IMG/VR virus record: IMGVR_UViG_3300043438_000246
Location: 4,051-68,050 of that record
From: a virus
Reading direction: 5' to 3' (one strand)
DNA length: 64,000 bases
Shown here: positions 1-8,489 of the stretch, in pieces
How positions within the stretch are numbered: position 1 is the stretch's first letter
How the letters are laid out: the number at the start of each line of letters is the position of its first letter
The notes under the pieces: generated by a model
Told to the model about the DNA's origin: nothing
What the model saw: the letters and a program-made list of their open reading frames with translations, nothing else
Database searches by the model: none
Position numbers and translations under genes: made by a program

Positions 1-17
1 TTCGGGGGATCAATTAT

Positions 18-71
18 TTACAAAGAATAAAGAAAGCCAAATACAATCATAGCAATTAAAATAACTAACAA
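18..71 (-). CDS. 17-aa hydrophobic micropeptide (MLVILIAMIVFGFLYSL)
   Basis: TTG start directly after the upstream TAA, preceded by GAGGA; hand-translated. Confidence 0.4.
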   Translation of the reverse strand: MLVILIAMIVFGFLYSL

Positions 72-161
72 TTAATTTTCCTCAATTTCATCTAGTAATT
101 CCCAAAGTATTGGTTCTAATTCTTTAGCAACCAAATCTAATTTAGTTTGCAAGTCTTTCAT
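72..161 (-). CDS. 29-aa acidic microprotein (MKDLQTKLDLVAKELEPILWELLDEIEEN)
   Basis: ATGA overlap with upstream stop, GAGG SD; hand-translated. Confidence 0.65.
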   Translation of the reverse strand: MKDLQTKLDLVAKELEPILWELLDEIEEN

Positions 162-322
162 TCGCTAACCTCTTTCTCTAATAGTATTCCAAGAATTAAT
201 TCTAACTGTGGTGTAGTTAGTAATGCTTGGGCACAACCCCATGACCATGCTAAGTCCATGTCTCCATAGTGCTTTTTAGAAAGAGTATTTATCTGTTGAG
301 CAATCTCAAAATTAGTTTTCAT
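158..322 (-). CDS. 54-aa hypothetical microprotein (MKTNFEIAQQ...WSWGCAQALL...)
   Basis: TAATG coupling to the 322..516 gene; hand-translated. Confidence 0.7.
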   Translation of the reverse strand: MKTNFEIAQQINTLSKKHYGDMDLAWSWGCAQALLTTPQLELILGILLEKEVSE

Positions 323-516
323 TACTTTACCAACCCTTCAAACCACTGAGAGTATCCACCATTGAAGTAGACTTCATCTCCGTTGCAATTAACAAGTGTA
401 GCAGTGATTGACTCTAAATCATCATTGACATAGTGAACCTCTTTTACAAGATAGTTTGTATCGTTGGAGATAAATAGTTTTCCAACATTGGTTTTATTTA
501 TTAGTGATAGTGACAT
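322..516 (-). CDS. 64-aa hypothetical early protein
   Basis: ORF track; TAAATG coupling within the operon. Confidence 0.7.
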   Translation of the reverse strand: MSLSLINKTNVGKLFISNDTNYLVKEVHYVNDDLESITATLVNCNGDEVYFNGGYSQWFEGLVK

Positions 517-663
517 TTAGTTTTCTACTTTCTTTAATTCATGTTGATTATTAAGGGGGCGATTGTTATTGGAGAACATGGCTTCAATAACCGCTTTATC
601 TTTTATTGATTGAGCAATTCTTTTTTCTTGTTGCTCTTTAAGAATTCTATCAAAGGTACTCAT
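517..663 (-). CDS. 48-aa microprotein (MSTFDRILKEQQEKR...)
   Basis: TAATG coupling; N-terminus resembles 2215..2388. Confidence 0.7.
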   Translation of the reverse strand: MSTFDRILKEQQEKRIAQSIKDKAVIEAMFSNNNRPLNNQHELKKVEN

Positions 664-770
664 TAGTCAAAGTATCCAAATTCTCCTATGCAAGAACCAC
701 AGATACCTGAGAATTCTTGCTCATGCTTTTCGCAATAAGCGACTTTCTTATTTTCTTTAGTGTTAGTCAT
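663..770 (-). CDS. 35-aa CxxH/CxxC putative Zn-binding microprotein
   Basis: AAGAAAGG SD; first gene after the promoter at 825-846; YCEKHEQEFSGICGSC. Confidence 0.7.
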   Translation of the reverse strand: MTNTKENKKVAYCEKHEQEFSGICGSCIGEFGYFD

Positions 771-824
771 TTTTGACCTAACCTTTCTTTATCAAGAACC
801 TTTCTTGATTTTCTTTATACTGTA

Positions 825-846
825 AGTCTAACATAGACCACTGACA
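825..846 (-). promoter_or_regulatory. Leftward promoter TGTCAG-N10-TAGACT (PafBC/RecA-NDp-like)
   Basis: Minus strand reads TTTGTCAG TGGTCTATGT TAGACT; no canonical -35; same layout at 1688-1709. Confidence 0.7.
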
Positions 847-884
847 AATTAGGGACATTCTCGGGCGTGTCGGAAAAGTATTTT

Positions 885-900
885 TGTGATAACCATCACA
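885..900. promoter_or_regulatory. CRP/GlxR-type site TGTGA-N6-TCACA (perfect)
   Basis: TGTGA TAACCA TCACA. Confidence 0.6.
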
Positions 901-904
901 CTAC

Positions 905-924
905 TTATACACAGGTTATCCACA
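905..924 (+). promoter_or_regulatory. Tandem DnaA boxes
   Basis: TTATACACA gg TTATCCACA. Confidence 0.6.
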
Positions 925-960
925 GGACCCGGCATTTTTTTTATGCAGGGTACTGAATAA

Positions 961-1116
961 TTATTTATACAAATGATCCCATGCCTTGCGACACATTAAA
1001 ATGCTTTCGCAATTATTGCAACAAATAACACCATGAGGGTTTAGGTCATAGTCATACATGTCGATTGTGGTAGATACCGCACCACATACGGATTTAATTG
1101 GTACATAGGTACTCAT
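961..1116 (-). CDS. 51-aa Cys-rich microprotein
   Basis: ATGA overlap; MSTYVPIKSVCG...ICCNNCESILMCRKAW; hand-translated. Confidence 0.7.
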   Translation of the reverse strand: MSTYVPIKSVCGAVSTTIDMYDYDLNPHGVICCNNCESILMCRKAWDHLYK

Positions 1117-1223
1117 TTAGTATTCTCACTTTCTTTAGTAGCATTAGAGATAATTGTGAAAGCCTCAATGCGTTGCATTGCTCTTTTATTCTCTACGAAT
1201 TTTTTATAGTCTGTTAAGTCCAT
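1113..1223 (-). CDS. 36-aa microprotein (MDLTDYKKFVENKRAMQR...)
   Basis: TAATG coupling; hand-translated. Confidence 0.65.
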   Translation of the reverse strand: MDLTDYKKFVENKRAMQRIEAFTIISNATKESENTK

Positions 1224-1405
1224 TATTTACTCACATACCAATCTGTCCATTCAGGCAGACGCTCAGGGTCTCCGTCATAGTAGTAACGCTCAATGTTATT
1301 TTCACACATCTCACAGAAAGTGAATTGTGTATCTGCTACATCAGAGATAGCAGTTTTATTAGGGGTATGCTCTTTGCATACTGTGTTAGTTATTAGTGTT
1401 ATCAT
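1223..1405 (-). CDS. 60-aa CxxH/CxxC microprotein
   Basis: ORF track 1223..1414; the ATG at 1405 follows an AAGAAAGG SD. Confidence 0.75.
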   Translation of the reverse strand: MITLITNTVCKEHTPNKTAISDVADTQFTFCEMCENNIERYYYDGDPERLPEWTDWYVSK

Positions 1406-1471
1406 TTTTGACAACCTTTCTTTTTTTATTAGTTATTATTATTTATTAAGTTTTTTTGTTTCTCTAATTGC

Positions 1472-1636
1472 TTAGAGAGAACGACCACATGCAGAGTGGA
1501 AACAATTTCCGTCTGACTTACAGTTTTCGTGTATAGTGGCAGGTGCTAATACAACCTGACCACATTGGCAGAGGTTCATTAAACCTCTAGGGTAGTCGCT
1601 AAGTGTAGCGACTCTTGCAAAGATTGAGTTTGTCAT
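1472..1636 (-). CDS. 54-aa Cys/His-rich microprotein
   Basis: AAGAAAGGAG SD; first gene after promoter 1688-1709; LCQCG...HENC...CFHSAC. Confidence 0.75.
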   Translation of the reverse strand: MTNSIFARVATLSDYPRGLMNLCQCGQVVLAPATIHENCKSDGNCFHSACGRSL

Positions 1637-1687
1637 TTCTGACTCCTTTCTTGTTAAAGACCTTCTTTAACTTTCTTTATACTAGTA

Positions 1688-1709
1688 AGTATAACAGGGG
1701 GGTCTGACA
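1688..1709 (-). promoter_or_regulatory. Leftward promoter TGTCAG-N10-TATACT (PafBC/RecA-NDp-like)
   Basis: Minus strand reads TTTGTCAG ACCCCCCTGT TATACT. Confidence 0.7.
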
Positions 1710-1742
1710 AATTGAGGGGTACAAATCGGACATTAGAGACAT

Positions 1743-1820
1743 TGTGATGTAGAACACATGTGACGTACATCATGTGGATAAACCTGTGGATAACCCCGGT
1801 AAAATGTGATGCACATCACA
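1743..1820. promoter_or_regulatory. Cluster of three CRP-like sites and two DnaA boxes between divergent promoters
   Basis: TGTGA-N6-ACACA 1743-1758, TGTGA-N6-TCATG 1759-1774, TGTGGATAA 1773-1781 and 1785-1793, perfect TGTGA-N6-TCACA 1805-1820. Confidence 0.6.
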
Positions 1821-1841
1821 TCCAAGACACGGCGTGTCGTC

Positions 1842-1870
1842 TTGACTTTTGGGGGTATCTATGTTATACT
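1842..1870 (+). promoter_or_regulatory. SigA-type promoter TTGACT-17-TATACT with extended TG
   Basis: Near-consensus; preceded by ACGGCGTGTCG. Confidence 0.85.
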
Positions 1871-1921
1871 TGCAGTATTAGATAGTTAAAGTATAACTAC
1901 TAAAAAAGAAAGGTTCATCAA

Positions 1922-2032
1922 ATGAACACTGTTAAACTAAATGAAGTACTCGCTCAGACACCTGAGCAGACCCTAGCAGACTATGCTAGATTAGACGCAC
2001 TTATCGCTAAGGGTACCTACTCAGATAAGTGA
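1922..2032 (+). CDS. 36-aa microprotein (MNTVKLNEVLAQTPEQ...)
   Basis: AAGAAAGG SD; hand-translated. Confidence 0.7.
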   Translation: MNTVKLNEVLAQTPEQTLADYARLDALIAKGTYSDK

Positions 2033-2064
2033 CCTAAGTCACACAACGCCTACGGCGTGTCGCC

Positions 2065-2093
2065 TTGACTTTTGGCGAGGTATCTGATAGGAT
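2065..2093 (+). promoter_or_regulatory. SigA-type promoter TTGACT-17-TAGGAT with extended TG
   Basis: Imperfect direct repeat of the 1829-1870 promoter, including ACGGCGTGTCG. Confidence 0.8.
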
Positions 2094-2214
2094 ACTCCTA
2101 TAACAATTAAATAGTAACACAAATCCTAGTGAGCCCTACTAAGTAGGCAAATAACCTAGGTCAGCAAAAAGGTTAGCAAATCGCTAACTAGATTAAAAGA
2201 AAGGTGTTCATCAA

Positions 2215-2388
2215 ATGGATACACTAAACAGAATAAAGGCAGAGCAAGACCTTGCTCGCCATGAAGCACATGAGAAGGCTATGCTAAAGTCTCCTTGGAT
2301 ACGTGAAAGCGTAGAAGCCTATCGCTCAGCAGATGAGGCACAAATCGCTACTGTGGAAGCAATCCGCAAGCAATGGTATGGTTTCTAA
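2215..2388 (+). CDS. 57-aa helical microprotein (MDTLNRIKAEQDLAR...)
   Basis: AAGAAAGGTG SD; hand-translated. Confidence 0.75.
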   Translation: MDTLNRIKAEQDLARHEAHEKAMLKSPWIRESVEAYRSADEAQIATVEAIRKQWYGF

Positions 2389-2389
2389 C

Positions 2390-2473
2390 ATGACTATACT
2401 ACTCATTATCTCTCTAGTATCTTTTATCTTTATCCCTATTGGAATCTATCTAACAAACGAAGGACACATCTAA
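2390..2473 (+). CDS. 27-aa single-TM micropeptide
   Basis: MTILLIISLVSFIFIPIGIYLTNEGHI, tightly packed in the operon. Confidence 0.6.
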   Translation: MTILLIISLVSFIFIPIGIYLTNEGHI

Positions 2474-2475
2474 AA

Positions 2476-2643
2476 ATGACAATCACATACTCAATCTGGC
2501 AAGGCTCTAAACTCATCTCTATTGACAACATTGCACATGAGGTTAAGGCAATAGACCACCTCATCAACTCACTAAACGATAGTGAATTAGGCAAGGGTAA
2601 AAAGTTTACCGCAAATGTTATGGACATTAAGGTAGGTAACTAA
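2476..2643 (+). CDS. 55-aa microprotein (MTITYSIWQGSKLISID...)
   Basis: AAGGA SD, operon packing. Confidence 0.7.
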   Translation: MTITYSIWQGSKLISIDNIAHEVKAIDHLINSLNDSELGKGKKFTANVMDIKVGN

Positions 2644-2646
2644 CTC

Positions 2647-2787
2647 ATGACTATTGAATTAGACAACTATGGATTTATGTTTGACCTAGGAGATTTTATT
2701 TATGTATCTCTATCGTGGGCTATGCTAATTACTAGCGCAGTTATTTTTGCAGGGTATAAGATTTACAAAAGAAAGAAGGCTAACTAA
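2647..2787 (+). CDS. 46-aa membrane microprotein
   Basis: AAGGTAGG SD; TM segment followed by basic tail YKIYKRKK. Confidence 0.7.
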   Translation: MTIELDNYGFMFDLGDFIYVSLSWAMLITSAVIFAGYKIYKRKKAN

Positions 2788-2892
2788 ATGCTATCAGCAA
2801 TGTATGCACACACATGTGAATCATGTGGAGATACGGGTCTAATTATTTTTGACCAAGATAAAACACACATAGACCCTTGCAAATGTGAATAG
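2788..2892 (+). CDS. 34-aa CxxC/CxC Zn-ribbon-like microprotein
   Basis: TAAATG coupling; HTCESCGDTG...DPCKC. Confidence 0.7.
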   Translation: MLSAMYAHTCESCGDTGLIIFDQDKTHIDPCKCE

Positions 2893-2902
2893 GATCTAGG
2901 GT

Positions 2903-2918
2903 AGGGGGTACGCCCCCT
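2903..2918 (+). terminator. GC hairpin AGGGGG-TACG-CCCCCT closing the rightward early operon
   Basis: Perfect 6-bp stem with UACG loop, 10 nt after the stop; no U-tract. Confidence 0.45.
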
Positions 2919-3054
2919 CCCAATGGTGTGCTCACTAATTATTAACAATTCTTTTTTGAAAATCACGCATCATACAAACCAAACAAATATTCAGATTTTG
3001 CCAAAATGAAAATTTTTACAGATTTTCAGATTTGCCAGGGTATATAACTCTGGA

Positions 3055-3261
3055 TCACCATTTATCCACAGGACATTTAGCATTCTTAAGGGTAGTCTTT
3101 AAAGTCATAAAACATCCACACTTTCTACATGTTTGAGACAGTTTTCTAAAAAATGGACATCCTCTACAAATTTCAAGGCGGTATGCAACCAATTCTTCCT
3201 GGGACCTTGGTGAATTAGGATTTAATAAATCCCATGGCTTAACATCATCCTGATCTGACAT
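3055..3261 (-). CDS. Cys-rich small protein (DUF6171-like)
   Basis: RLEICRGC...CRKCGCFM..KT.L..A.CP..KW pattern; TATACT 6 nt before the ATG (leaderless). Confidence 0.75.
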   Translation of the reverse strand: MSDQDDVKPWDLLNPNSPRSQEELVAYRLEICRGCPFFRKLSQTCRKCGCFMTLKTTLKNAKCPVDKW

Positions 3262-3460
3262 ATATCCAGTATATCCTATATCACCATATATCTAATATAT
3301 AACTTTTTGTTATAATCCAGGATATTAGGCATACTAGAGAAAACTAACCTTTATTAGACATAGGGGATACTTGTATCCTTATATTGTCTATAGGGGGTTT
3401 GGGTAACTCTATTTTCGGCGGCGCTTAAATACCGTCGAATTTTAATGTTATAATTTGCAT

Positions 3461-3739
3461 ATGACCGCATACTTTAAAGATAGTCTTAGCCATACTGATC
3501 CACAGCGATTGAGCCCGAACGGAACCCACTCAGGCCTTGACTTTACAATTCAAAACTGTAATGATTCAGGTTATATATATTTGGGCGGAAACGAAAACGT
3601 GTCCTCTTCAAACTTTGGATTTAGAATTTTGCCAAACCATTCTATATCATTCGAACTACCAGGTAAGGATGCCATGTATGCAGTGGCATCGACATCTGGT
3701 ATGAACGTATCTGTAATTTATACTAGTTTGGAATTCTAA
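3461..3739 (+). CDS. Hypothetical small beta-sandwich (probably virion) protein
   Basis: ORF track; ATG 6 nt after TGTTATAAT. Confidence 0.7.
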   Translation: MTAYFKDSLSHTDPQRLSPNGTHSGLDFTIQNCNDSGYIYLGGNENVSSSNFGFRILPNHSISFELPGKDAMYAVASTSGMNVSVIYTSLEF

Positions 3740-4185
3740 TGGCTCGGTTTACACACCCCGCTTTTGGAGACATGGGTGGTCTTACAACAACAATTAACAC
3801 GTATGCTCCAGTATGGTCTGGAACTGGGCTAACTTATACAAACACTCCAGCAACTGGCTACTACATAAAAATTGGCAACTTAGTAACTATTCAAATAGAT
3901 GTTTTATTTACAACTGTCACTAACTTTGGAACTGGTCAATATTCGTTGACGCTTCCATTTGCTTCTAAATATCACACAGATGTTTATGGCGGATCTATTC
4001 ATGATGTTGTAAATCAGGGTGTAGATCATTATAGTATTAAGGGACATCTATCTCCAGCATCAACAGGTATTACAGTGTGGAATATTGGTAGTTCTGCAAA
4101 AGATGAACCATTTGATCACAATTCTCCATTTGTATTATCAACAGCAGATAAATTCCATATGTCATTTTCTTATATATGTGAATAA
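3739..4185 (+). CDS. Fibre tip-like domain protein
   Basis: GYYIKIGNLVTIQI...YSLTLPF motif typical of fibre C-terminal domains. Confidence 0.6.
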   Translation: MARFTHPAFGDMGGLTTTINTYAPVWSGTGLTYTNTPATGYYIKIGNLVTIQIDVLFTTVTNFGTGQYSLTLPFASKYHTDVYGGSIHDVVNQGVDHYSIKGHLSPASTGITVWNIGSSAKDEPFDHNSPFVLSTADKFHMSFSYICE

Positions 4186-4217
4186 TTAATCTCAAATACT
4201 GATATAATAATCTTATT

Positions 4218-4505
4218 ATGACTACTACCGATTGGGCTCAATTTATTCTTGCTTTGCTTTCAATCGGAGCGATTGTAGTTAGTTCAATTCGCTGGTATAT
4301 AAGAGTTCAAACCAAGCCAATCGCTGATGCCATAGAAGATATTAGAAAAGAAACTAAAACTAACGGCGGAACTTCTATGCGTGATGAGATTAAATTTATT
4401 AAACTTGAACAAGAAAGATCTGCTAAAACTAGAGCAGCATATAATTCTAAGTTAGATCATATGTATGAAATTCTTATAGAGTTTATATCTAAAAACTCTA
4501 AATAG
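4218..4505 (+). CDS. Single-TM membrane protein (possible holin or lysis accessory)
   Basis: N-terminal TM followed by an NGGTSMRD motif as seen in actinophage membrane proteins. Confidence 0.55.
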   Translation: MTTTDWAQFILALLSIGAIVVSSIRWYIRVQTKPIADAIEDIRKETKTNGGTSMRDEIKFIKLEQERSAKTRAAYNSKLDHMYEILIEFISKNSK

Positions 4506-4720
4506 TATATATAAAAGATATCTTAAAAACCTCTTACTTTATACTTCTTTTCTTTATATATTTAGTATACACCTTAATACCCTGGATTTCTACTTTTTAA
4601 GTAAAGTTGTTTATAACAATTTTGTAACAATTCTTAATACCCTGGGTTTATAACTTTTTGTTATCATATATATAACGTTTTGTTATAATGTAATATGTCT
4701 ATGTAATTTAATGTTATAAT
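4500..4720. repeat. AT-rich non-coding region with direct and inverted repeats
   Basis: CTTAATACCCTGG at 4573 and 4633; TATAAC-N5-GTTAT(A/C) at 4649 and 4671 (also 3298). Confidence 0.75.
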
Positions 4721-4726
4721 AAAAGC

Positions 4727-4786
4727 GCTGGCCCACTAGATTGCTCTACCCACCCCCACTGCCTCTAGTGGGTTCAGCCTTTATTT
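4727..4786 (+). ncRNA. Candidate ~55-nt hairpin sRNA with a C-rich loop
   Basis: TGTTATAAT 4712-4720; stem GCTG-G-CCCACTAGA/TCTAGTGGG-TT-CAGC; T-rich 3' tail; no ORF. Confidence 0.55.
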
Positions 4787-4804
4787 ATGGTATAATCAAT
4801 GATT

Positions 4805-5215
4805 ATGACATGTTCTTCTTGTTCCCCACAAATTCAAAAATACGGTGCAGATCCTGCCAGTGTTCAATGGAAGGTTGTGCGTGGAGACACAGCAACCCTA
4901 GAGGTTGAGTTTCTTGAGATAGACGAGACTACCCCATTTGACACCGATGGCTGGACGTATAAGGCTACTTCATACGATGCCACGGGTTCAGTGCTAGATG
5001 ACCTTCCAGTAACGGCTACAACAGGAGTTGCTATGATTACAGTAGATCCTTGCATTACTGAAAAATGGGGAACGGCATATAAAACAGTTGTAGCAGAATT
5101 ACCATTTGATTTACAAATTACTATTCCAGCAGCATCGGGAGAACCAACAGTTTGGACACCAGTTATTGGTACAATATGTGTACTAGGTGATATTACTCCA
5201 GGAGGAAGTCTATGA
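4805..5215 (+). CDS. Virion beta-sandwich adaptor protein (paralog of 5312 and 16836)
   Basis: WKVVRGDT...FDLQIT...GTI motif. Confidence 0.7.
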   Translation: MTCSSCSPQIQKYGADPASVQWKVVRGDTATLEVEFLEIDETTPFDTDGWTYKATSYDATGSVLDDLPVTATTGVAMITVDPCITEKWGTAYKTVVAELPFDLQITIPAASGEPTVWTPVIGTICVLGDITPGGSL

Positions 5216-5310
5216 CAGCACTACCGCCAGTTATAAAGATTAATGACACACGTACAAATTTTCCACCTATTGTAAAAGTAAACAATAAAGTTTTTAAGGT
5301 AAAGGGATAA
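5212..5310 (+). CDS. 32-aa microprotein with internal repeat (LPPVIKIN/FPPIVKVN)
   Basis: GGAGG SD, ATGA overlap, fills the gap exactly. Confidence 0.65.
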   Translation: MTALPPVIKINDTRTNFPPIVKVNNKVFKVKG

Positions 5311-5311
5311 C

Positions 5312-5659
5312 ATGGCATTTCCAGGTACATATAATTTTAGTTATTACAAGGGCGATACAAATGAATTTGTTATTCGTCCTAAGAATTCTTCAGGATCAGC
5401 ATTTGACCTAACTGGTTTTAGCGCTGCATTTTTTATTGCATCAGCCCGTGGAGATGATCCTGCTTTCTCAGTTGAAGCACAAGCAGTAGTCAGTGCAGTA
5501 AACGATACAGTTACTTGCACAATTTTGCCAGGTGTTGGAACAACCTTAGATGCAGGTTCATATGTTTATGACGTTCAGATCACATCTGGACCTTCTGTTA
5601 TTTATACAATAATCACAGGAACAATTTCGGTCACAGAACAAGTAACTGGAGCAGCATAA
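5312..5659 (+). CDS. Virion beta-sandwich adaptor protein
   Basis: YKGDT...FDLTG...YVYDVQI...GTISV. Confidence 0.75.
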   Translation: MAFPGTYNFSYYKGDTNEFVIRPKNSSGSAFDLTGFSAAFFIASARGDDPAFSVEAQAVVSAVNDTVTCTILPGVGTTLDAGSYVYDVQITSGPSVIYTIITGTISVTEQVTGAA

Positions 5660-6240
5660 TGACAGATGTCGTTCTAAATAACGATGATGTTACAGTTCTT
5701 GCTCCTCCAGCAATAGTTGAGGTGCTTGTAGATATTGGTCCACAGGGAACTCGTGGAAGCCAGTTTTTTGTCGGGGTAGGAAATCCAAACTCAGTAAGCA
5801 TTGGACAAACACCAAATCTAAATGATTTATATATTAATACATCTCCTGGTGGAGAACTAGGATATTTATATCAATACAGATCAGAACCTGGTGGAAATGT
5901 TTGGGTAGAAGTATTAGATATTTATCCTTCAGTATATTCAGAAAATGCACAAGTTACATTTGAGTCAGGTACTTCAGAAGTTATTATTCCAGTAGCAGAT
6001 ATTGTTACAGTTACTGGTACCCCGCTTGTTTCAGAAAATTTTAGTGTTCAGTACAGTATCGCCCATACTAATCCAGTTGCTTCAGCAATGCAGATTCCAG
6101 CCCTAGTAGGTGCAGGAGATAATCTTGTCATTAATCTTGAAGCCGTTGAGTATGCAGGCGCTGCATGGTCTGCACTAGATGAGTCAGTTACAATTCACTT
6201 CAACATTACCATTGTTGAAGCGGGATCAGTGTCATACTAG
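5659..6240 (+). CDS. Virion structural or fibre-anchoring protein
   Basis: GPQGTRGS...GNP...DLYIN motif common in fibre proteins. Confidence 0.65.
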   Translation: MTDVVLNNDDVTVLAPPAIVEVLVDIGPQGTRGSQFFVGVGNPNSVSIGQTPNLNDLYINTSPGGELGYLYQYRSEPGGNVWVEVLDIYPSVYSENAQVTFESGTSEVIIPVADIVTVTGTPLVSENFSVQYSIAHTNPVASAMQIPALVGAGDNLVINLEAVEYAGAAWSALDESVTIHFNITIVEAGSVSY

Positions 6241-6276
6241 CATCATAATATGGTATAATTTTCAAGAGGTGATCTA

Positions 6277-7656
6277 ATGGCAACAGAGTCAATTGGTACG
6301 TTAATACCAACAGCAATTCCAGGGTATACTGATTCAGCAGATATCCAAGCAGCACTACGTGCATACCACTATGGTTCATATACTTATGACCCTGCTAATA
6401 CATCACCAGCATCACTTGTAAGCCCCTCTATTGCAAAGACTATTTATGATATTGAAGCAGATATCACTGCTCTTGAAAATCGTCCTTCATCAGGTGGAGA
6501 AGTAGATGATACAGAGCCAGTACCAGCAGACTTTACACCACCAGAGATTCCAGATGGATTTATCTGGGTAGATTCAAATGGCACAGTAGGTGGACAACCA
6601 ACATCTGCAACTTCAGTATTTACAAACTCTGCTCCAACAACATCTCTTACAACTGGTGTTATTTGGGTAGATAAAGATCCAACTTCAATTACCGCAAATC
6701 CATTTATTCCAACCGCAATGATTAATGCAAAAGGTGATTTAATTGTTGGAAGCGCAGACGATGCAGCAATACGTTTAGCAGCAGCATCTACTAACGGATA
6801 TGTTCTTTCTGTAAACTCAGCAACAACATCAGGACTTGAATGGATTGTAAACGATCAAGGTGATATTACAGCGGTAACATCTGGAACTGGAATTACAGTT
6901 ACAAATGGTACAGGTCCAATACCTTCGGTTGCAATCGATACAACCGTAACAGCAGATTTAACAACGGCACAAACTTTAACAAACAAAACTTTGACAACTC
7001 CAATTATTAGTTCTATTTCTAATACTGGTGCTTTAACTTTACCAACAAGCACAGACACTTTAGTGGGCCGTGCTACAACAGATACGTTAACAAACAAAAC
7101 AGTTAACTTAACTAATAATACTTTGTCTGGTACTATTGCACAGTTTAATACAGCACTTTCAGATGCTGATTTTGCAACATTGGCAGGCACTGAAACACTT
7201 ACAAGTAAAACCTTAACCTCTCCTGCAATTAATACAGGAACAGTATCAAACTCTATTTTGGTAGGACCAGAAGAAAGATGGAATATTGTTGCAGCAGCAG
7301 CAAGTTCAACAATAGCAATTGATGCTTTGACTTCTGGTGTTTGGTATTATACTTCAAATGCAACAGCAAATCATACTCTTAATTTTAGAGGTAGTTCTTC
7401 AACTTCAATGAACACAATTTTATCAATTGGTGATTCTGTTACTATTTTGTGGTTAAACACAAATGGTGGAACAGCATACTATCCAAATGTTTATCAAGTA
7501 GATGGAACTACATCTGGAGTTACAGTAAACTGGTCTGGTGGAACCGCACCAACTGCAGGCAATGCTTCAGGTATTGATGTATATTCTTTTACAATTGTAA
7601 AAACAGCAAATGCAACATTTAGAGTATTAGCAGCAGGGGCGGTAAAATACGCATGA
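6277..7656 (+). CDS. Fibre stalk protein with TLTNKT repeats (cassette 1)
   Basis: KGDLIVG motif, TLTNKTLT repeats, C-terminal W.GG.AP...GIDVYSF domain. Confidence 0.8.
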   Translation: MATESIGTLIPTAIPGYTDSADIQAALRAYHYGSYTYDPANTSPASLVSPSIAKTIYDIEADITALENRPSSGGEVDDTEPVPADFTPPEIPDGFIWVDSNGTVGGQPTSATSVFTNSAPTTSLTTGVIWVDKDPTSITANPFIPTAMINAKGDLIVGSADDAAIRLAAASTNGYVLSVNSATTSGLEWIVNDQGDITAVTSGTGITVTNGTGPIPSVAIDTTVTADLTTAQTLTNKTLTTPIISSISNTGALTLPTSTDTLVGRATTDTLTNKTVNLTNNTLSGTIAQFNTALSDADFATLAGTETLTSKTLTSPAINTGTVSNSILVGPEERWNIVAAAASSTIAIDALTSGVWYYTSNATANHTLNFRGSSSTSMNTILSIGDSVTILWLNTNGGTAYYPNVYQVDGTTSGVTVNWSGGTAPTAGNASGIDVYSFTIVKTANATFRVLAAGAVKYA

Positions 7657-8489
7657 GTCCAACATTTTCACCTGTTGGTGGCGGAGGAATTGGTAAAGCA
7701 GCCATTACTTCACAATCTGGTGCGACAGTTGACACAACATCTCGCGCTGGAAAAACTATTTATAAGTTTACTGGTTCAGGTTCAATTACAGTTGGTACCG
7801 CTGGACTTGCAGAAGTTTTAGTTATTGGTGGAGGTGGAGGCGGAGCCTCCGCATCTAGCCCGTCAAACCTCAAGGGTGCAGGTGGAGGTGGAGCAGGTGG
7901 AGTTCTTTATGATACTGATAGATACTTGCCTGCTGGAACGTACACAGTAACTATTGGCGCTGGTGGAGTTGGTGGATTTTATGTCCCTGGTGAAACAGCA
8001 TATGGAAGCATTGGTAACAATGGACAAACAACGCAGATTGGCATTATTGCTATAGCCCCAGGCGGTGGTGGTGGTGGTGGACCAAGTCAGTTTGCTGAAC
8101 CATCTGCTGGTGGCTCTGGTGGTGGCAGAGGTGGTCCTTATACTGCTAGCGGTGCAGTAGGAACAGCAGGGTTGGGAAATTCTGGAGGCAATAGTGTTGG
8201 CGCTAATAGTGGCGGAGGCGGCGGTGGTGCAGGCGCTGCTGGCACTAATGCTAGTGGTTCTACATCAGGTGCAGGCGGTGCAGGAAGAGCAATTTCAATT
8301 ACTGGAACTAGCGTTACTTATGGTGGCGGTGGTGGTGGTTGTGGTGCTGGTACTGCTGTAGGTGGTTCAGGCGGTGGCGGTGCAACTGGTACTGCAGGTA
8401 CTTCTAATACTGGTGGCGGTGCAGGGGCTGAACGCGCTTATTATGGACCAAGTGGTGGTTCTGGATACGTAGTGGTGGTGACTGGATAA
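7653..8489 (+). CDS. Glycine-rich adhesin or fibre-tip protein
   Basis: EVLVIGGGGGG...GGGGAGG...GGSGYVVV Gly-rich domain. Confidence 0.8.
   Translation: MSPTFSPVGGGGIGKAAITSQSGATVDTTSRAGKTIYKFTGSGSITVGTAGLAEVLVIGGGGGGASASSPSNLKGAGGGGAGGVLYDTDRYLPAGTYTVTIGAGGVGGFYVPGETAYGSIGNNGQTTQIGIIAIAPGGGGGGGPSQFAEPSAGGSGGGRGGPYTASGAVGTAGLGNSGGNSVGANSGGGGGGAGAAGTNASGSTSGAGGAGRAISITGTSVTYGGGGGGCGAGTAVGGSGGGGATGTAGTSNTGGGAGAERAYYGPSGGSGYVVVVTG

Follow-up and report, generated by a model that had tools for sequence, protein, structure and literature searches.

A freshwater actinophage control region resembling an array of host regulatory sites, with leftward promoters of the PafBC type

Introduction

The host-takeover regions of phages SPO1 and T5 hold many very small early genes, arranged in short operons with their own strong promoters at one genome end, and these early arrays use plain strong host-sigma promoters. 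The subject of the present work is a cluster of promoters and regulator motifs that lies among microprotein operons near the left end of a 64,000-nucleotide stretch of viral DNA (hereafter, the window), corresponding to bases 4051-68050 of IMG/VR record IMGVR_UViG_3300043438_000246, itself 68,050 bp long and 63% complete according to CheckV. Unlike those of SPO1 and T5, one arm of this phage region appears to use an activator-dependent class of promoters together with sites for global regulators. Phage early promoters that depend on host factors are, as a kind, already known.

The closest described counterparts of the leftward promoters of the window are the PafBC-dependent (RecA-NDp) promoters of Actinobacteria. 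As described in PMC8635444, the in vivo PafBC motif is tGTCgg(N10)tA(N3)T, with a -26 element at -23 to -28, no -35 and a canonical -10; the GTC triplet of the -26 element is given there as the sole base-specific contact of PafB, and sigma-A holoenzyme alone is reported to fail at such promoters. PafBC is triggered by binding of single-stranded DNA (ssDNA) according to PMC11804915. The phage promoters share with this class the 22-nt layout TGTCnG-10 nt-TAnnnT, the missing -35 and the invariant GTC. They differ in preceding operons of tiny proteins rather than DNA-repair genes, in having leaders led by a ribosome-binding site (RBS) and bearing a stem-loop, where the host-type promoters are mostly leaderless, and in being combined with upstream CRP sites.

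Three further systems bear on the region. Class I CRP/CAP promoters (the E. coli lac type, and those of M. tuberculosis CRP and C. glutamicum GlxR) likewise have TGTGA-N6-TCACA upstream, in steps of ~10-11 bp; the phage sites are set apart by occurring at two kinds of promoter, consensus ones and PafBC-type ones lacking a -35, by centres at -64.5, -74.5 and -85.5 from the predicted starts, where class I sites centre near -61.5, -71.5, -82.5 or -92.5, and by being perfect, in contrast to the candidate hosts, where perfect sites are absent. At T4 middle promoters, subject to 'sigma appropriation' by MotA and AsiA, a box near -30/-26 similarly replaces the -35, a helper reads it and sigma region 4 is bridged, a parallel that PMC8635444 itself draws for PafBC promoters. 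The T4 helpers, however, are phage-encoded and remodel sigma, whereas no phage helper was found here in the WYL, CRP and WhiA families, the only ones searched, and the box here equals the site of a host activator. Finally, in the WhiA/WhiB promoters of Streptomyces sepX a GACAC core precedes the -35, its strand and spacing both being variable, as is the case for a word of the phage region, GGCGTGTCG, for which WhiA is a candidate reader; the phage word is nonetheless 9 bp long, at times a 13-bp palindrome, and abuts the -35 directly. In the literature searched, we found no description of phage promoters of the PafBC/RecA-NDp class, nor of this combination of sites. PafBC has been tied to mycobacteriophage resistance in a 2025 ACS Infect Dis paper, as cited in PMC12848934.

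Results

Leftward promoters share the layout of PafBC promoters

Both leftward promoters of the window, L1 and L2 (Table 1), follow TGTCAG-N10-TAnnnT, a 22-nt bipartite element with the same layout as the published PafBC motif; L1 reads TTTGTCAGTGGtctaTGtTAgaCT. To place them in a family context, 80 related loci (1.32 Mb) were kept at 74-90% identity of gp88, a protein encoded directly upstream of the window. The family consensus of the leftward promoters is a.aTGTCAGtcc....tg.TA.aaT, and the 514 unique instances behind it show no conserved position where a -35 would lie. The GTC is covered by CTGACA, invariant in 18/18 aligned orthologous promoters; the family-wide counts were obtained with a pattern already containing GTC and are no test of its invariance. 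On the early-gene strand of the phage loci the count is 596 for TGTCAG and 27 for TGTCGG; on the other strand it is 48 and 5, respectively.

The comparison with hosts was made in 401 genomes sampled from the class containing Rhodococcus ruber, RecA being found in 384 of them. Small genomes picked from this class-wide actinobacterial sample served as candidate hosts, and five were examined in depth. Exactly one motif was present within 550 nt ahead of recA in each of 19 actinobacterial genomes consisting of a single contig (1.27-1.48 Mb), always with TGTCAG and mostly reading cTTGTCAGTGGcgccTGcTAccTT; a 1.5-Mb draft genome had a single motif at this place as well, in its TGTCGG variant, bringing to 20/20 the small genomes with exactly one TGTCNN-N10-TAnnnT upstream of recA. 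The 20 larger high-GC genomes used as a control had the motif upstream of recA in 19 cases (TGTCGG 10, TGTCAG 6, other variants 3). The likeness extends into the flanks, TTGTCAGTGG-N4-TGnTA being common to L1 and the recA promoters of candidate hosts. A tandem pair of WYL-domain genes of ~310-340 codons, in the pafB-pafC arrangement, was present in 5/5 candidate hosts checked, and no WYL protein was found in this record or in four complete relatives (0/5). Whole host-type genomes of 1.3-1.4 Mb yielded 5-14 matches to the pattern versus 4-8 for a reversed-pattern control; the phages carry 7-10 in ~8 kb. The published geometry, the recA motif of the 19 small genomes and the pafBC-like pair all bear out the PafBC-type assignment proposed in a preliminary description of the window. 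At the sequence level, the resemblance of the leftward promoters to the PafBC class is established; that they depend on PafBC, we infer.

PafBC-type promoters of the hosts themselves (L223-L231) were mostly leaderless, with an open reading frame (ORF) starting 1-7 nt after the -10 in 7/10 contexts. The ORFs that follow, named from their sequences, included RecB-like nuclease-sized, CPBP-type membrane protease-like, NlpC/P60-like and small ones. One host PafBC-type promoter (G441:C1:442637-442681) has a DnaA box 15 nt upstream, and the recA promoter of the same genome (G441:C1:862474-862513) has GGCGTGTCG 10 nt upstream, inverted as at L1; each is a single case and could be due to chance.

The motifs are clustered at one end of the record and conserved in relatives

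All elements listed in the preliminary description were found in place, including the leftward and rightward promoters, GGCGTGTCG at 864, 1831 and 2054, the DnaA boxes and the five CRP-like sites. That description had also proposed scanning the rest of the DNA to test for enrichment of the motifs. In numbers, enrichment is seen in the 64-kb window for GGCGTGTCG (3 versus 0.04 expected, reached in 0/100 shuffles) and for the DnaA box (4 versus 0.86, 1/100), but CRP-like sites with at most one mismatch (4 versus 3.45, 49/100) and TGTCAG-N10-TAnnnT (2 versus 0.92, 19/100) are no more frequent than by chance. In position, all of them are clustered. The whole record has its six GGCGTGTCG, five perfect DnaA boxes, four perfect CRP palindromes and seven TGTCAG-type promoters within the first 7.1 kb, the latter all on the minus strand, two in the window and five upstream of it. 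CRP-like sites with at most one mismatch number nine in the first 8.2 kb (four perfect, five with one mismatch) and zero in the other 59.85 kb, and two-mismatch sites show the opposite, background pattern (3 versus 24). The 760-2230 interval singled out earlier as a regulatory hub is thus a real cluster, but its 1.5 kb are one stretch of a longer region. We read the cluster as part of a larger, putatively early control region for host takeover, ~8-13 kb long and reaching 4 kb to the left of the window.

The expectation that the motifs would recur in related phages was confirmed in the 80 related loci, which together contain 644 TGTCAG-type words, 385 perfect CRP palindromes, 362 perfect DnaA boxes and 270 GGCGTGTCG, with at least one per locus in 79/80, 80/80, 77/80 and 74/80 loci, respectively. 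Of 643 TGTCAG-type words extractable together with their flanks, 595 are on the strand of the early leftward genes, and two complete relatives have all of their 9-10 TGTCAG-type promoters in one ~8-kb arm, pointing in one direction save for a single site. The divergent block at window 1640-1925 was aligned with 17 distinct relatives (18 sequences in total, 68-91% identical). Invariant or near-invariant columns coincided on the leftward side with the RBS, the -10 and TGTCAG, and in the remainder of the alignment with the CRP half-sites, the DnaA boxes, GGCGTGTCG and the rightward -35, TG and -10; the spacers between these words vary freely. At the 1805 CRP palindrome, TGTG...ATCACA is invariant. 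The non-randomness of the elements is shown by clustering and conservation together. Selection on the words themselves is argued from this footprint pattern and from the persistence of the blocks while the small genes flanking them are replaced.

In window 1-3000 and in loci L004-L083, the intergenic control blocks were often better conserved than the microprotein genes on either side, which come and go; to judge from these sequences, the early region is a mosaic in which gene cassettes alternate with promoter blocks that stay constant.

CRP-like sites lie at discrete distances upstream of both promoter types

Distances were computed to predicted transcription starts, placed 7 nt after the -10. 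In the record, CRP-like sites with at most one mismatch are centred at -64.5 from three promoters (including both rightward ones), at -85.5 from two and at -69.5 from one; a centre of -74.5 was computed once and derived by hand once, for the promoter of rightward type that lies in leftward orientation upstream of the window. In the family, where site centres lie 0.5 further upstream than the values given, 536 unique leftward-promoter contexts contained 260 perfect sites within 250 nt upstream, with peaks at -64, -74, -85 and -102 and none closer than -64. After clustering of these contexts at 85% identity into 349 clusters, 115 had a perfect site within 140 nt, at -64 (23), -74 (20), -83 to -85 (28), -99 to -102 (16) and -69/-70 (9). 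A Rayleigh test for helical periodicity gave small p values from 9.5 to 12.5 bp and is not specific to one period. No CRP palindrome overlaps a core promoter. The upstream position, the steps of ~10-11 bp and the constant avoidance of the core promoter point to a class I activator-like arrangement rather than an operator; with starts that are themselves predicted, we regard the evidence for such an arrangement as inconclusive. Since the two arms have CRP-like sites at identical phased distances, the division of labor proposed in the preliminary description, of a damage-responsive left arm and a CRP-modulated right arm, fails.

Each of the five candidate hosts encodes one protein with cNMP-binding and HTH_Crp_2 domains, and none was found in the phage record or in the four complete relatives (0/5). 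The CRP of candidate host G364 matched mycobacterial CRP (3i54) with E = 4e-79 and GlxR (4cyd) with E = 6e-73, and the recognition helix GASRETVNKALADFA is identical between G364 CRP and 3i54 in the alignment. In line with earlier expectation, the CRP-like sites and DnaA boxes of the phage fit regulators that the candidate hosts encode, and the DnaA boxes are in use there, as described below.

DnaA boxes resemble those at candidate-host contig ends

Clusters of the DnaA box TTATCCACA were found at both ends of single contigs in 5/5 candidate hosts, marking what is probably oriC beside dnaA. The contig ends of G348 and G507 display same-orientation pairs of boxes 11-12 bp apart, like the pair at window 1773/1785.

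In the window (1759-1781) and in many relatives, a composite element TGTGA-N6-TCATGTGGATAA was seen in which the right half of a CRP-like site overlaps a DnaA box, and many relatives have this composite duplicated ~50 bp apart. The overlap suggests competition or cooperation between the two proteins. In one complete relative (G066:C1:102351-102396), three same-orientation DnaA boxes lie within 45 bp, with consensus-type promoters on either side; the cluster is ~5 kb beyond the arm with the PafBC-type promoters and is a candidate phage origin.

Rightward promoters are of consensus type and carry a conserved 9-bp word

In an independent scan for sigma-70-type promoters, the rightward promoter R1 (10/12 matches, TG) was the best match and R2 scored 9/12, also with TG; the two were the only rightward matches of that quality in 760-2230. 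The scan returned 8 promoter-like matches in 3.6 kb, below the shuffle mean of 13.4, so that only R1 and R2 stand out. A third promoter of the same type, in leftward orientation, lies directly upstream of the window.

The conserved GGCGTGTCG word is 9 bp long, at times a 13-bp palindrome, and contains GACAC. Its centre lies relative to the rightward promoter type at -42 in forward orientation (51/83 sites) or at -50 inverted (36/43 sites), and relative to the leftward type at -50/-51 inverted (26/66 sites). At window 1825-1837 the 13-bp palindrome is perfect, and the orthologous site is inverted in 6/18 aligned relatives. For the WhiA motif GACAC, PMC10243135 describes occurrence on either strand, variable spacing upstream of the -35 and bridging by WhiB to sigma region 4. 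One WhiA is encoded by each of the five candidate hosts, and none was found in the phage record or the four complete relatives (0/5). Conservation over 9 bp, a position flush with the -35 and the absence of enrichment in the hosts weigh against WhiA, which is one candidate among others; the word could be read by WhiA/WhiB or by a phage protein, or could serve as an upstream contact for RNA polymerase. Its earlier designation as a WhiA site is unproven as stated, the conserved word being 9 bp rather than 5, at times a palindrome, and not enriched in hosts.

Downstream of the -10 hexamer of the rightward type, at a distance of ~3 nt, the inverted complement of the hexamer is often found (TATACT..AGTATA, TAGTAT..ATACTA; window 1865-1880 and 2088-2103). 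Such palindromes were present at 28.8% of 215 rightward-type promoters, versus a control mean of 10.4%, and at 65-74% within the TATACT and TAGTAT classes. Enrichment was confined to the rightward type, the leftward type giving 13.5% versus 9.1%, with a control maximum of 13.5%. At record 3106-3135 and 4020-4046 (L003, upstream of the window), a minus-strand GGCGTGTCG extends into a shared word, CGACACGCCCGACnGCGCCGGG, which contains a short GC hairpin, with a T run following on the plus strand at the first site; this element resembles a terminator for the plus strand, placed within the leftward arm.

The record derives from a lake-water phage of Actinobacteria

From the sequence of the record and its relatives we conclude that it is a fragment of a ~105-kb freshwater (lake-water) actinophage. 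The window, of 33-46% GC in 1-kb bins, encodes a portal, a prohead protease, a capsid protein, a class II ribonucleotide reductase, DnaB, a primase, the Pol III alpha subunit and RecA. The best cultured relatives of the portal, which resembles those of Streptomyces BE-type phages, come from Streptomyces phages of ~130 kb, Bmoc being one (44-45% identity over 97-98% of the length), and Streptomyces phages account for 127 of the 359 matching records. The leftward gene directly upstream of the window belongs to Pfam GP88, with 390 matching records that include 283 from Mycobacterium phages and 101 from Streptomyces phages. WhiB was found above the Pfam cut-off in 4/4 complete relatives, which are 105-114 kb long; among 14 control genomes the family matched only Corynebacterium. 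The actinobacterial host proposed earlier is consistent with WhiB in all four complete relatives and with the actinophage affinities of the portal and gp88. The nucleotide similarity of window 1-8000 to cultured phages amounted to two short matches of 69-71% identity. Relatives are very numerous, at least 597 related stretches being confirmed among 600 candidates, and the DNA is represented in lake-water metagenome runs, 17 of which contain at least 60% of the sampled words.

The candidate genomes are taken as the putative host lineage from their size, GC content (45.6-48.0% in 20-kb samples of the five), habitat and phylum. The window contains no tRNA gene. Queries of genome contigs with the phage ribonucleotide reductase and WhiB matched only phage contigs mis-binned into metagenome-assembled genomes (MAGs) of seven taxa, and all WhiBs retrieved in searches for that family were of phage type, on contigs no longer than 140 kb. 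One MAG, G001, was considered as a guide to the host and rejected: its phylum sample had WhiB in 1/121 genomes, on the phage contig itself, and its phylum is therefore not actinobacterial and says nothing about the host. Contigs of this phage family were found binned into public MAGs labelled Chitinophagaceae, Flavobacterium, Bifidobacterium, Gammaproteobacteria, Bacteroidota, Beijerinckiaceae and Saccharibacteria. These placements probably reflect faulty binning and could lead host prediction astray.

Discussion

Taken as a whole, the region is rather probably an early control array written in the language of the host, with PafBC-type promoters for the left arm, helper-independent consensus promoters for the right, CRP sites on both and DnaA boxes between. 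A more specific proposal, which we put forward tentatively and with somewhat less than even confidence, is that this very abundant family of lake actinophages hijacks PafBC, one arm of its takeover genes being without a phage-encoded early transcription factor, and has CRP and DnaA wired in. On the broader reading of the array, RNA polymerase with sigma-A would read the -26 element and extended -10 of the leftward operons only with PafBC inserted ('sigma adaptation'), and the rightward operons would start from near-consensus sigma-A promoters with no helper needed. Entry or replication of phage DNA might, as pure conjecture, generate ssDNA and switch on PafBC, which in its active state would fire the left arm; cAMP-CRP would scale both arms to the energy state of the host, and DnaA occupancy could couple or insulate the divergent units, or drain DnaA from the host. 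The arrangement of sites suggests that the phage times takeover by reading alarm and nutrient signals of its host.

Several points weigh against the hijacking of PafBC and the host-read array. The leftward promoters have a good extended -10 (TGnTAnaaT) which might let them fire without PafBC, and the -26 element might then be a booster or the site of another factor. The counts made in the family rest on related loci rather than on independent events. Bmoc, the only cultured relative examined, is without a cluster of these motifs: its first 50 kb contain 0 GGCGTGTCG, 0 perfect CRP palindromes and no motif cluster, with two TGTCRG-type matches and two DnaA boxes, none in the left arm. No direct link between phage and host, by spacer, prophage or tRNA, was found. 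As to CRP, 234/349 clusters of leftward promoters have no perfect site within 140 nt, and the positions of the phage sites, relative to predicted starts, are 3 bp off those of E. coli class I promoters, where CRP is centred at -61.5, -71.5 and -82.5. The five candidate hosts (1.3-1.4 Mb each) contain 0 perfect CRP palindromes, and their sites with at most one mismatch are not enriched (7-20 per strand versus 13-24 in the control), which leaves no visible host CRP regulon for comparison. Nor is GGCGTGTCG enriched in the candidate hosts (2-7 sites versus 5-12 in the control), so that at least one of the elements may belong to a phage-encoded factor.

Such a factor is at the heart of an alternative that we consider unlikely, although it deserves the most attention of those weighed here, namely that these are phage-specific 'middle' promoters or operators at which an early or virion protein of the phage reads TGTCAG, the CRP palindrome and/or GGCGTGTCG, in the manner of T4 MotA/AsiA or of a Cro/CI-type dimer. 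Early promoters that are truly read by the host would then be limited to the rightward consensus promoters. A 9-mer that is at times a palindrome, occurs in either orientation at orthologous promoters and is not enriched in candidate hosts is what a dedicated DNA-binding protein would be expected to recognize; many small early proteins, several of them cysteine-rich, are encoded beside the sites, the candidate hosts lack perfect CRP palindromes, and the absence of the motifs from Bmoc would fit a clade-specific invention. Against a phage reader, TGTCAG-N10-TAnnnT matches the host promoter class down to its flanks (TTGTCAGTGG-N4-TGnTA upstream of recA), the palindrome agrees with the CRP consensus at each of its 10 specified positions, the recognition helix of candidate-host CRP is the same as that of mycobacterial CRP, and no palindrome lies over a core promoter, unlike usual operators. 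No WYL, CRP-type or WhiA-type protein was found in the four complete relatives, the search being restricted to these folds among the DNA-binding ones.

That phage CRP sites are 'better than host' also fits a role as sinks, in which dozens to hundreds of site copies, arising as the phage replicates, would draw CRP and DnaA off the chromosome and stop host replication initiation and CRP-dependent genes. Each phage genome has 4-9 perfect CRP palindromes versus none in the five candidate hosts, and about as many perfect DnaA boxes as the contig ends of a host, and the conserved composite brings a CRP half-site over a DnaA box. A sink, however, needs no fixed distance to a promoter, yet the CRP sites occupy discrete, helically phased upstream positions, GGCGTGTCG sits at -42 or -50, and the sites are confined to the early control blocks instead of being spread over the genome. 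We give this explanation little credence as the main role of the sites; sinks and sensing are not mutually exclusive. Still less probable, in our estimation, is that the DnaA/AT-rich blocks are phage origins, or that the blocks are mainly recombination joints between cassettes, with the promoter words incidental. The phage encodes DnaB, a primase and the Pol III alpha subunit with no initiator recognized among the proteins scanned, its tandem DnaA boxes are like those at candidate-host contig ends, probably oriC, and the intergenic blocks are often better conserved than the small genes beside them, all of which would suit an origin or a joint. Yet the DnaA boxes recur in several separate blocks over at least 8 kb rather than at one locus, the promoter words keep the orientation of the genes (595/643 on the early-gene strand), and the spacing to RBS-led ORFs is kept and the leader hairpins are conserved, as in functional promoters.

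If PafBC does read the leftward promoters, this would be the first phage found in the literature searched to build its early promoters on an actinobacterial sigma-adaptation activator. A damage sensor tied to phage resistance would become a trigger of phage expression, making PafBC a pro-viral host factor; the alarm of the cell at foreign DNA would fire the early program, and the PafBC promoter class would prove portable to viruses. Were a phage factor to read the promoters instead, the family would hide a new system akin to sigma appropriation. The region also offers a sequence-level handle on the takeover of uncultured, globally abundant freshwater actinobacteria, and hundreds of natural promoter variants with which the action of PafBC, CRP and DnaA at one promoter may be dissected. 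In lake viromes, TGTCAG-N10-TAnnnT, and GGCGTGTCG beside TTGAC, may serve as markers by which early regions are annotated and hosts predicted.

Feature map of the control blocks and additional observations

The features of the region are collected in Table 1.

Table 1 Features of the control blocks and flanking operons, in window coordinates; promoters, starts and regulator sites are predicted.
Feature	Coordinates	Strand	Details
Leftward operon 1	72..770	-	Five small ORFs (29, 54, 64, 48, 35 aa), overlapping or tightly packed; from ORF list
RBS-like AAAGAAAGG			Ahead of first ORF of leftward operon 1
Leader stem-loop, operon 1	791..809	-	Between predicted start and RBS; inverted repeat in sequence
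PafBC-type promoter L1	825..846	-	TGTCAG 846-841, TGn, -10 TAGACT 830-825, no -35; predicted start ~818
GGCGTGTCG, inverted	864..872	+	Centre ~-50 from L1
Perfect CRP palindrome TGTGATAACCATCACA	885..900		Centre -74.5 from predicted L1 start
DnaA box TTATCCACA and one-mismatch box TTATACACA	905..924	+	TTATCCACA 916-924, preceded by TTATACACA 905-913
Leftward operon 2	961..1636	-	Four small ORFs (51, 36, 63, 54 aa), several cysteine-rich
Leader stem-loop, operon 2	1653..1671	-	Compensatory stem changes among 18 aligned relatives
PafBC-type promoter L2	1688..1709	-	TGTCAG 1709-1704, -10 TATACT 1693-1688; predicted start ~1681
CRP-like site, 1 mismatch	1743..1758		-69.5 from L2
CRP-like site, 2 mismatches	1759..1774		-85.5 from L2; overlaps first DnaA box
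Tandem perfect DnaA boxes	1773..1793	-	At 1773 and 1785, same orientation, 12 bp apart
Perfect CRP palindrome	1805..1820		Centre -64.5 from predicted R1 start
GGCGTGTCG in palindrome GACACGGCGTGTC	1825..1839	+	GGCGTGTCG 1831-1839 is right arm of 13-bp palindrome 1825-1837; 2 nt upstream of R1 -35
Rightward sigma-A/sigma-70 promoter R1	1842..1870	+	TTGACT, 17-nt spacer, TGt, TATACT; predicted start ~1877
36-aa ORF served by R1	1922..2032	+	RBS before
CRP-like site, 1 mismatch	2028..2043		Over stop codon of 36-aa ORF; centre -64.5 from R2
GGCGTGTCG	2054..2062	+	2 nt upstream of R2 -35
Rightward promoter R2	2065..2093	+	TTGACT, 17-nt spacer, TGa, TAGGAT; predicted start ~2100
Rightward operon	2215..2892	+	Five small ORFs (57, 27, 55, 46, 34 aa)
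Perfect DnaA box	3062..3070	+	Beyond the range of the preliminary description; at 3' end of leftward DUF6171 gene

Fifteen ORFs of 27-64 aa surround the blocks, and for 14 of them tblastn gave matches covering at least 70% of the ORF in 1-53 of the 80 loci. Relatives were found for four of the five ORFs of leftward operon 1 (5-25 loci each; none for ORF 663-770), for those of leftward operon 2 (7-53 loci) and of the rightward operon (3-31 loci), and in just one locus for the 36-aa ORF at 1922..2032.

In the two leader stems, both sides change among relatives and yet stay complementary, with at least six different stems, such as UUAAAG/CUUUAA, UCAGAA/UUCUGA and UUGAGA/UCUCAA. RNAalifold applied to a crude alignment of the leaders returned no consensus structure, and the hairpin rests on reading of the aligned stems; it is probably an mRNA-stabilizing or translation-control element.

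Contigs from one RNA-library run, X18, overlap the early region at 281-546, 610-811, 1873-2068, 2493-2734 and 2705-3033; they are uninformative on starts, strand and level, RNA libraries may contain DNA, and a DNA contig also ends at 811. Two further runs, of RNA or possibly RNA, gave only scraps over the early region. Between the microprotein operon and the structural genes, window 3055-3261 (minus strand) encodes a 68-aa cysteine-rich ORF that matches Pfam DUF6171 (E = 1.5e-9).

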